Part shown: positions 1 to 8,789 of the stretch, in pieces
Layout of the letters: each line of letters begins with the position of its first letter
How positions within the stretch are numbered: position 1 is the first letter of the stretch
DNA from: Escherichia coli
Lineage (GTDB): Bacteria; Pseudomonadota; Gammaproteobacteria; Enterobacterales; Enterobacteriaceae
DNA length: 64,000 nucleotides
NCBI RefSeq assembly: GCF_030013595.1
Contig: NZ_CP122768.1
Strand: one strand, 5' to 3'
Notes under the pieces: model-generated
The model's database searches: none
What the model was told of the DNA's origin: nothing
Seen by the model: only the letters and a program-made list of their open reading frames with translations
Program-made: the position numbers and the translations under genes

Positions 1-522
1 GCTATCGATTTTACTCACCAGGTAGCCAATCGACACCACGCCGATGACTTTTCCATCGTCATCAAAGATTGGCGTTTTGGCACGCATCGCCATGCCAATT
101 GACCCTTTCCCGGTGATGAAGTAGCTCTCCCCATTCTCCAGCGCGCCCGGTTTGGTGAACTGCATAGGATAACCAATTTTCTCCGGATTAGGATGGTAAA
201 GACGAATCGAGTGCCGATCGCCAATCACCACATAATCGAAATCAGTATCTCTTTGTAATTTGTTAGCGATGGTCGCCAGCCTCTTGTAGTCACGCGTTTT
301 CACTGCGCTGATGATACTGTCATTAGAAGCAATAATTTTTGCCTGATTCATTGCCATGTCGCGCACATGAAGCGTTAAATAGTCCTCAAAACTGGCCGTA
401 AAATATTGCGCCAGGGCTGCAATGACAAATATTGAGAACACCAGAATCAGCAAAAAGATACGCAGCGGAAATGCCAGTCTTTGGAAAAATGCAAACTGTT
501 TATTCTCGTTAAGCTGCAACAT
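1..522 (-). CDS. dpiB: Citrate-sensing histidine kinase CitA/DpiB, N-terminal part only (gene runs off the window start)
   Basis: Reverse-strand translation from the ATG at 520-522 reads MLQLNENKQFAFFQRLAFPLRIF..., recognised as the N-terminal membrane/periplasmic region of CitA; divergent from citC as in E. coli. Confidence 0.8.
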   Translation of the reverse strand, partial: MLQLNENKQFAFFQRLAFPLRIFLLILVFSIFVIAALAQYFTASFEDYLTLHVRDMAMNQAKIIASNDSIISAVKTRDYKRLATIANKLQRDTDFDYVVIGDRHSIRLYHPNPEKIGYPMQFTKPGALENGESYFITGKGSIGMAMRAKTPIFDDDGKVIGVVSIGYLVSKIDS

Positions 523-901
523 TGTTTTCCTTGCGGGTTGTCCCGAGCCTCTTTGACGGATGTAATTAAAATGTTGAATCAAAATACATAGATATTAAAT
601 ATAATCGTGGCAAATTTTATTCATTAAATCAATTAAATCACTTAAACCTGCGGGTCATCTCGTAATTACATTAATTAAAAAACTTAAAACCATTAAATAA
701 ATAAAAAACCACTAACTCTATGTGAAATAAATCAAAATTTCACGCTGCAATACTCCTTAGGATGTATAGCGAAAGGAGAAAAAGATATACCTCGATCGCC
801 CCCCTTTCTCCCAAGTGAAAATAAAAGGTTATCAGTTTGCAACATCGAACAACATTCGTTGCAAATCGATAACAACATGCACCTTCAGGATACTATTTAT
901 T

Positions 902-1960
902 ATGTTCGGCAATGATATTTTCACCCGTGTAAAACGTTCAGAAAATAAAAAAATGGCGGAAATCGCCCAATTCCTGCATGAAAATGATTTGAGCGTTGAC
1001 ACCACAGTCGAAGTATTTATTACCGTAACCCGCGATGAAAAGCTTATCGCGTGCGGTGGAATTGCCGGAAATATTATTAAATGCGTTGCTATCAGTGAAT
1101 CCGTTCGCGGTGAAGGACTGGCGCTGACATTAGCCACTGAATTGATAAACCTCGCCTATGAGCGGCACAGCACGCATCTGTTTATTTATACCAAAACCGA
1201 ATACGAGGCGCTGTTCCGCCAGTGCGGTTTTTCCACGCTGACCAGTGTACCCGGCGTGATGGTGCTGATGGAAAACAGCGCCACGCGACTGAAACGCTAT
1301 GCCGAATCGCTGAAAAAATTTCGTCATCCAGGGAACAAGATTGGCTGCATTGTGATGAACGCCAATCCCTTTACGAATGGTCACCGTTATCTGATTCAAC
1401 AGGCTGCAGCACAGTGCGACTGGTTGCATCTGTTTTTAGTTAAAGAAGATTCTTCACGCTTTCCCTATGAAGACCGGCTGGATCTGGTGTTAAAAGGCAC
1501 CGCCGATATTCCACGCCTGACTGTGCATCGCGGCTCCGAATACATCATCTCCCGCGCTACGTTCCCTTGCTACTTCATTAAAGAACAGAGCGTCATTAAC
1601 CATTGTTACACCGAAATTGATCTGAAGATTTTCCGTCAGTACCTCGCTCCCGCGCTGGGTGTAACTCACCGCTTTGTCGGTACTGAACCCTTTTGTCGCG
1701 TTACCGCCCAGTACAACCAGGATATGCGCTACTGGCTGGAAACGCCGACTATCTCCGCACCGCCCATCGAACTGGTTGAAATTGAGCGGCTGCGTTACCA
1801 GGAGATGCCGATATCCGCTTCCCGGGTACGTCAACTGCTGGCGAAAAACGATCTCACGGCTATCGCGCCGCTGGTCCCTGCAGTCACGCTGCATTATTTG
1901 CAGAACCTGCTTGAGCACTCCCGCCAGGACGCGGCAGCTCGTCAAAAGACCCCCGCATGA
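902..1960 (+). CDS. citC: [Citrate (pro-3S)-lyase] ligase
   Basis: ORF 815-1960; start placed at the internal Met (MFGNDIFTRV...) to give the 352 aa I recall; first gene of the cit operon. Confidence 0.85.
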   Translation: MFGNDIFTRVKRSENKKMAEIAQFLHENDLSVDTTVEVFITVTRDEKLIACGGIAGNIIKCVAISESVRGEGLALTLATELINLAYERHSTHLFIYTKTEYEALFRQCGFSTLTSVPGVMVLMENSATRLKRYAESLKKFRHPGNKIGCIVMNANPFTNGHRYLIQQAAAQCDWLHLFLVKEDSSRFPYEDRLDLVLKGTADIPRLTVHRGSEYIISRATFPCYFIKEQSVINHCYTEIDLKIFRQYLAPALGVTHRFVGTEPFCRVTAQYNQDMRYWLETPTISAPPIELVEIERLRYQEMPISASRVRQLLAKNDLTAIAPLVPAVTLHYLQNLLEHSRQDAAARQKTPA

Positions 1961-8560: not shown

Positions 8561-8789
8561 TCCTCTGATTTACAAAACACGCTAATTCGTCTTCCATAAA
8601 CCATGACGATTAAGATTTATACATAATGCGCTACATTGAGGAATTCCCTGAATGTGACGCAAATCACTTCAAAGAGTGAGCAACAGTCAGTATCATCATG
8701 TGAGTTAAACCCTCGCCGCCTGACGGTGAGGGTTTTCTTTTGGGTATGTTTATCTGCGACACTCGCAGTACCGACGACATGGAGTAAAA

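Follow-up and report, generated by a model that had tools for sequence, protein, structure and literature searches.

Control of cit promoters by CRP has already been published and, for Klebsiella, has been on record since 2001. At the cit promoters of K. pneumoniae, CRP-cAMP binds and acts together with phospho-CitB (PMC2735749; PMC5521740). The E. coli region described here resembles the citS-citC region of K. pneumoniae in serving the same pathway, in having citC as the first gene and in combining, within an AT-rich region, CitB/DpiA-type sites with a CRP-type site. Meyer, Dimroth and Bott reportedly found, in 2001, that the Klebsiella CRP sites are centred at -41.5, which is also the position predicted here for E. 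coli citC. The two regions differ in the divergent partner and in the number of sites: in Klebsiella the partner is citS-oadGAB-citAB and each promoter has its own CRP site, whereas E. coli has dpiBA in that place and a single conserved CRP-type site. This comparison concerns gene order and arrangement.

The E. coli region can also be set beside class II CRP promoters (galP1 and melR-type CC(-41.5)), with which it shares a predicted centre near -41.5, a missing -35 element and a recognisable -10 element, and from which it differs in that the stronger half-site of E. coli citC is the promoter-distal one. With co-dependent class II promoters it would share a second activator immediately upstream, the citC start and the dependence on CRP being predictions. 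The CRP site of colE1, TTTTGTGAAAACGATCAAAAAA, and the sites of malT and araBAD have xCAAA as the second half, with A in place of C at position 18; the TCAAA half at citC is common to this group, and no significant difference from these sites was seen.

The window, that is, the whole stretch of E. coli DNA that was analysed, is 64,000 nucleotides long and carries the dpiB(citA)–citC divergent region in its first 2 kb. The dpiB–citC spacer extends from 523 to 901; it measures 379 bp with 32.5% GC, in agreement with the initial annotation, which had described a very AT-rich intergenic region of ~380 bp at citA/citC. The spacer was matched by 5,419 of 5,426 complete E. coli genomes, dpiB and citC are its flanks in RefSeq, and the region is ~98% identical within the species. 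The features referred to below are as follows.

1–522, minus strand: 5' part of dpiB (citA), sensor kinase; ATG at 522, divergent from citC.
613–706, no strand assigned: AT-rich direct repeats, four copies of a 34-nt family (D1) with TTAAAT/CTTAAA units; candidate DpiA/DcuR binding region.
691–710, no strand assigned: CATTAAA-N3-ATTTAAA-N-CA block, standing out in the footprint just upstream of the CRP-type site.
718–739, no strand assigned: CRP-type 22-mer CTATGTGAAATAAATCAAAATT, with TGTGA at 721–725, spacer AATAAA at 726–731, TCAAA at 732–736 and the centre at 728.5.
721–744, no strand assigned: palindrome, GTGAAAT (722–728), 8 nt, ATTTCAC (737–743) (repeat finder; 7 nt, 100% complementary).
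751–766, no strand assigned: NarL/NarP-like 7-2-7 heptamers TACTCCT-TA-GGATGTA, a 12/14 match to TACYYMT-NN-AKRRGTA, overlapping the predicted -10.
758–763, plus strand: predicted -10, TAGGAT (TAnnAT in orthologues), at a fixed distance from the CRP-type site.
769–771, plus strand: predicted citC transcription start, placed from the position of the -10; leader of ~132 nt.
902–1960, plus strand: citC, [citrate (pro-3S)-lyase] ligase; ATG at 902, first gene of citCDEFXGT.
8650–8671, no strand assigned: second-best CRP match, GAATGTGACGCAAATCACTTCA, in the rna-rnk spacer, 12.4 bits, ~130 bp upstream of rnk.

The segment 721–736 (22-mer 718–739) is likely to be a cAMP-CRP site of the normal TGTGA-N6-TCAxA form, situated ~41.5 bp upstream of the predicted citC start. 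With TGTGA-AATAAA-TCAAA it matches nine of the ten core CRP positions, and it is the only exact TGTGA-N6-TCAMA in the 64 kb. The likeness of TGTGA to one half of a CRP site had been noticed in the initial annotation, and this was borne out, as the motif belongs to TGTGA-N6-TCAAA. The accompanying statement, that the canonical 6-bp spacing is absent, was wrong, since the second half-site (732–736) had been counted as spacer; the suggestion of a CRP/FNR-family protein with unusual spacing is not supported, the canonical CRP spacing being both present and conserved.

A symmetrised CRP matrix was built on 22 classical sites of the Stormo–Hartzell / Berg–von Hippel compilation, and its consensus, AAATGTGATCTAGATCACATTT, is the published CRP consensus. 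In the scan, 718–739 scored 16.4 bits and ranked first of 63,979 window positions; the median score of real CRP sites was 13.0 bits, and the next match in the window reached 12.4 bits. When the similar colE1 site was omitted from the matrix, the score was 16.2 bits. Of the shuffled spacers, 0.13% scored as high as 718–739; when the background was set AT-rich, the site fell to 10.8 bits, a value reached by 2.5% of shuffled spacers. The core of the second-best match, TGTGACGCAAATCACT, appears among the CRP SELEX-chip sites, where its coordinate of 643,320 is equivalent to window position 8660 (Shimada 2011), so the matrix finds genuine sites; rnk is also present in the Crp ChIP-exo list. An identical CRP-type site is found in K-12. 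A full-text literature search with the site sequence returned no match.

Conservation was followed in 80 loci encoding CitC relatives, one genome per species, ~50 of them with a divergent citA. The Klebsiella citS-citC region was not among the 80; in L067 (K. spallanzanii) and in L029 a same-strand transporter gene lies upstream, not a divergent citS. When spacers of Escherichia, Salmonella and Citrobacter were aligned, TGTGAAATAAATCAAAA was invariant in 16 of 16 sequences, and in Hafnia, Buttiauxella, Atlantibacter, Serratia, Edwardsiella, Pantoea, Erwinia and others the block stood equally far from citC. In this wider search the variation fell in the middle of the block (AATAAA, AATATA, AATAGG, AACAGT). 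For all 67 Enterobacterales citC loci scanned, the orthologous site came first among the CRP matches across the entire 5–6 kb.

For the footprint, 33 non-redundant sequences (<80% identity) were anchored on the site and the information per column was calculated. T721, G722, T723, G724, A725 and A726 were conserved in 88–100% of the loci, T732, C733 and A734 in all of them and A735 in 88%; the CRP half-sites were thus conserved and the bases between them varied. The promoter-proximal half was TCAAA rather than TCACA in 88% of lineages, with C at 735 in two of the 33. Such a 'hybrid' half-site lies within normal CRP variation, because the colE1, malT and araBAD sites have xCAAA. Two positions where the CRP matrix holds almost no information, A726 (97%) and A729 (91%), were also conserved; an additional constraint, overlapping the site, may act on 726, 729 and 735, which are conserved beyond the prediction of the matrix.

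In five citC loci without a divergent citA (L029, L031, L033, L024 and L038), TGTGAA-N5-TCA and a TTACGAT-type -10 were kept, at a distance of only 78–91 bp from the ATG; the promoter module is thus linked to citC and not to the adjacent gene. The gene upstream of citC in L029 encodes, on the same strand, a 459-aa membrane protein with the look of a DcuC-type transporter.

The predicted -10 was conserved at T758 (79%), A759 (91%), A762 (76%) and T763 (85%) in the 33 non-redundant loci, with TACGAT, TAATAT and TAACAT as orthologous variants, and the distance from TAnnAT to the centre of the CRP-type site was constant at 29.5 ± 1 bp. A -10 at this place would put the start near 770 and the CRP-type site at about -41.5, a class II position. 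No match to a -35 hexamer was found, 735–740 reading AAATTT, and a consensus scan of 480–960 detected neither a self-sufficient consensus sigma-70 promoter nor a terminator; the lack of a consensus promoter and of a -35 fits a promoter that depends on an activator. A class II promoter was also looked for on the dpiB side, where the 33-locus footprint profile had no conserved TAnnnT at the mirror distance.

The match, its conservation and its constant distance from the -10 are observations; that CRP would occupy the site in E. coli and would act there as an activator is inferred, as are the transcription start and the assignments to DpiA and NarL. A CRP dimer at this class II position would cover the -35 region, touch RNA polymerase directly and act jointly with phospho-DpiA (CitB), for which the AT-rich repeats next upstream would be the binding sites. 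The citrate-lyase genes would thereby respond to carbon status and to citrate, and the NarL-like 7-2-7 element over the -10 could account for repression by nitrate.

The assignment of the upstream elements to DpiA draws on conservation and on a published truncation. The repeat blocks TTAAATCAATTAA and TAATTAAAAAACTTAAAACCAT were invariant in the Escherichia/Salmonella/Citrobacter alignment, and the block at 691–710 is probably the promoter-proximal DpiA (CitB) site. In the truncation DTR305 of the C. rodentium PcitC promoter, 'DpiA operator sites', located by EcoCyc alignment to E. coli, were removed and citrate induction was lost (PMC12405535). The start of the DTR305 primer, CATCTAACTCTTTGTGAAATAAATCAAA, aligns to 709–736 of the window, which places the cut 12 nt upstream of TGTGA. 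The AT-rich repeats at 613–710, strongly conserved across genera, are probably the DpiA/CitB operator region that was cut from this non-inducible construct. DTR305 keeps the CRP-type site and the promoter and is not inducible; hence the site alone is insufficient, the DpiA sites lie upstream and the two activators would be co-dependent, in agreement with the joint action of CRP-cAMP and phospho-CitB in Klebsiella. The same result speaks, indirectly, against DpiA as the binder of the palindrome, since the truncation retains that site yet loses induction.

Inhibition of PcitC by nitrate has been reported (PMC12405535), and the element at 751–766 is a plausible basis for it. AATACYCCTTAsGATGTA was invariant in Escherichia, Salmonella and Citrobacter. 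Matches of this grade to TACYYMT-NN-AKRRGTA numbered 2 in the 64 kb against 2.3 expected, so that the match is not significant alone. No NarL site was found in 721–744 itself, the NarL-like element at 751–766 being the nearest.

Genome-scale data on CRP bear on occupancy. Neither the CRP genomic SELEX-chip list nor the Crp ChIP-exo transcription-unit list contains the citC/dpiB spacer, although both contain the weaker rna-rnk site. AT-rich DNA may be poorly recovered by SELEX, and an uninduced promoter may give no ChIP-exo signal; according to the abstract of the ChIP-exo paper, Crp protects its own motif little. Both absences stand as real negatives despite these blind spots of the methods. 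In the CRPBSFinder main text, citC does not appear. For the PcitC sensor of C. rodentium placed in E. coli, cross-regulation by DpiAB, NarL and cAMP-CRP of the host has been described, and the same work describes induction of PcitC with glucose present, a point against CRP as an activator (PMC12405535).

The assignment of the conserved 16-bp core at 721–736 to CRP matters chiefly for correct annotation. Read towards citC, the working map of the control region would begin with the DpiA repeats, followed by the CRP site, a -10 under a NarL-like element and a start near 770, and it could guide users of PcitC as a biosensor of citrate, anaerobiosis or nitrate.

Several other readings were weighed against the cAMP-CRP site. 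The conserved block might instead be bound by another cit regulator (DpiA/CitB, DcuR or an uncharacterised factor), its likeness to CRP sites being fortuitous or due to overlapping sites. The conservation of A726 (97%) and A729 (91%), for which the CRP matrix has almost no information, would fit this reading; the block also borders on a conserved AT-rich stretch, a probable DpiA site, and CRP binding at the locus went undetected in the two genome-scale data sets. However, the conserved positions are two CRP half-sites at exactly 6-bp spacing with a variable middle, the upstream repeats carry a different motif (TTAAAT/CTTAAA), and the cut that removed the DpiA operator was placed just upstream of the block, which when retained gave no citrate induction. 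We regard another regulator as an unlikely explanation.

FNR sites (TTGAT-N4-ATCAA) belong to a protein of the same family as CRP and have a related geometry, and the right half of the citC site is FNR-like: ATCAA at 731–735 is a perfect FNR half-site, and GTGAAATAAATCAA fits TTGAT-N4-ATCAA at eight of ten positions. An FNR site, or a dual CRP/FNR site, at -41.5 could give anaerobic induction of citC, and the operon is expressed anaerobically (PMC4683798; PMC12405535). In keeping with FNR, A735, which makes the half TCAA (FNR type) and not TCAC (CRP type), was kept in 88% of the 33 lineages, and in one of them (Moellerella, L052) the left side reads CTTGA. Against it, matches at eight or more of ten positions occur at 49 places in the window, and the left half has retained a G specific to CRP (GTGA, 88%) at the position for which FNR requires T. 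Anaerobic control in the cit system is attributed to CitA itself, which also counts against FNR. In Tables S5, S6 and S7 of Myers et al. 2013 (ChIP, predicted sites and Δhns/ΔstpA, from cells in glucose minimal medium) the spacer has no entry, and for citC/dpiB or coordinates 650,9xx–651,8xx its binding tables have no entries except sigma-70 peaks inside genes. FNR, one of the binders considered in the initial annotation, is consequently improbable here: its 8/10 match is unspecific, and the locus has neither an FNR ChIP peak nor a predicted FNR site.

A related possibility is a hybrid element, in which TGTGA would be a half of CRP type and ATCAA a half of FNR type, the asymmetry being kept throughout Enterobacterales. 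CRP together with FNR, or a third protein of the CRP/FNR family with a specificity of its own, would then combine carbon and oxygen signals at -41.5. This reading keeps a slim chance, because A735 is apparently under selection, two spacer positions are over-conserved and CRP was unseen in the two data sets.

The palindrome that first drew attention to the region requires separate comment. At 721–744 the DNA reads TGTGAAATAAATCAAAATTTCACG, identical to the sequence quoted in the initial annotation. The inverted repeat with 8-bp arms described there does exist, with seven perfect pairs around N8; its eighth pair, T721/G744, is mismatched. Perfect 7-bp inverted repeats with gaps of 0–20 nt were counted in dinucleotide-preserving shuffles of the spacer, which held 1.0 on average and at least one in 52% of shuffles. 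A spacer this rich in AT is expected to contain about one such repeat, so that the one at 721–744 does not exceed chance.

The palindrome is invariant in E. coli, 712–745 being nearly unchanged in 5,373 of 5,426 complete genomes, which is uninformative because the region as a whole varies so little within the species. Both arms were invariant also in four other Escherichia species. In the Escherichia/Salmonella/Citrobacter spacer alignment the right arm, TTTCACG, occurred in Escherichia only, the other genera having TTTACCT, TTCATCT, ATTACCT and the like. The information content of right-arm TCAC (740–743) was at most 0.25 bit in the 33 non-redundant Enterobacterales loci, and among the 67 Enterobacterales loci the left arm had a palindromic partner in five, all of Escherichia. 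In orthologous cit regions, then, the left arm is conserved and the palindrome as a whole is not; a symmetric operator with an 8-bp gap, as initially proposed, does not agree with a right arm that is unconserved outside Escherichia.

Judged by these alignments, the palindrome appears to be mostly coincidental, a by-product and not a functional unit. Its left arm would consist of the strong CRP half-site and three spacer bases; the right arm (737–743) would lie in an unconserved stretch at about -33 to -27 and be complementary by accident, in Escherichia only. That GTGAAAT-N8-ATTTCAC functions by itself, as an operator for a dimer with unusual spacing or as an RNA or DNA hairpin, is highly improbable: its arms are invariant in the 5,373 E. 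coli genomes and the four other Escherichia species and the plus-strand hairpin has -6.1 kcal/mol (z = -3.3), but such a repeat is expected by chance in the spacer, Salmonella, Citrobacter and every genus further removed lack the right arm but retain the left one together with the inner TCAA, and the hairpin is weak and would fall outside the citC transcript if the predicted start at ~770 holds. The sole Rfam match was a spurious eukaryotic scaRNA (18 bits), and a known RNA family was rejected.

A larger inverted repeat is also present in the spacer, at 828–843 / 858–873. It has 16-nt arms, 88% complementary and 14 nt apart, and lies in the predicted citC leader just before the ATG. GTTATCA in its left arm is conserved across genera, the right arm is Escherichia-specific, and the repeat overlaps the 3' end of an antisense ORF at 832–1137. 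This ORF (minus strand, 101 aa, GTG start) is antisense to citC and corresponds to nog1, which has been described in EHEC (PMC4683798). The reported nog1 start is 40 bp upstream of the GTG, at ~1177, and a sigma-70 ChIP-seq peak (Myers 2013, v2 650,810) is located beside it, at about window position 1170.

On the dpiB side, ATGTAATTAAAATGTT (559–576) was invariant in 16 Escherichia, Salmonella and Citrobacter spacers and lies 37–54 bp upstream of the dpiB ATG. It resembles the ArcA direct repeat TGTAA-N6-TGTTG, a pattern found 51 times in the window against 38 expected. The ArcA-like repeat at 561–576 accordingly fits the pattern at chance frequency, which does not support ArcA, another candidate for the region, and no entry for citC/dpiB was found in the supplements of Park et al. 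2013. The segment 559–576 could be part of the dpiB promoter or of the DcuR site that precedes citAB.

A strong anaerobic sigma-70 ChIP-seq peak, recorded as 'within dpiB' (Myers 2013 Tables S1/S2, v2 651,823), corresponds to window position ~157, ~365 bp inside dpiB. Its occupancy differs between aerobic and anaerobic cells, and it may mark an internal or antisense promoter. Expression of citC, citD, citE, citF, citX and citT changed in an O2-dependent manner only in delta-hns/delta-stpA (Myers 2013 Table S11), which suggests silencing of the AT-rich cit control region by H-NS in glucose medium.
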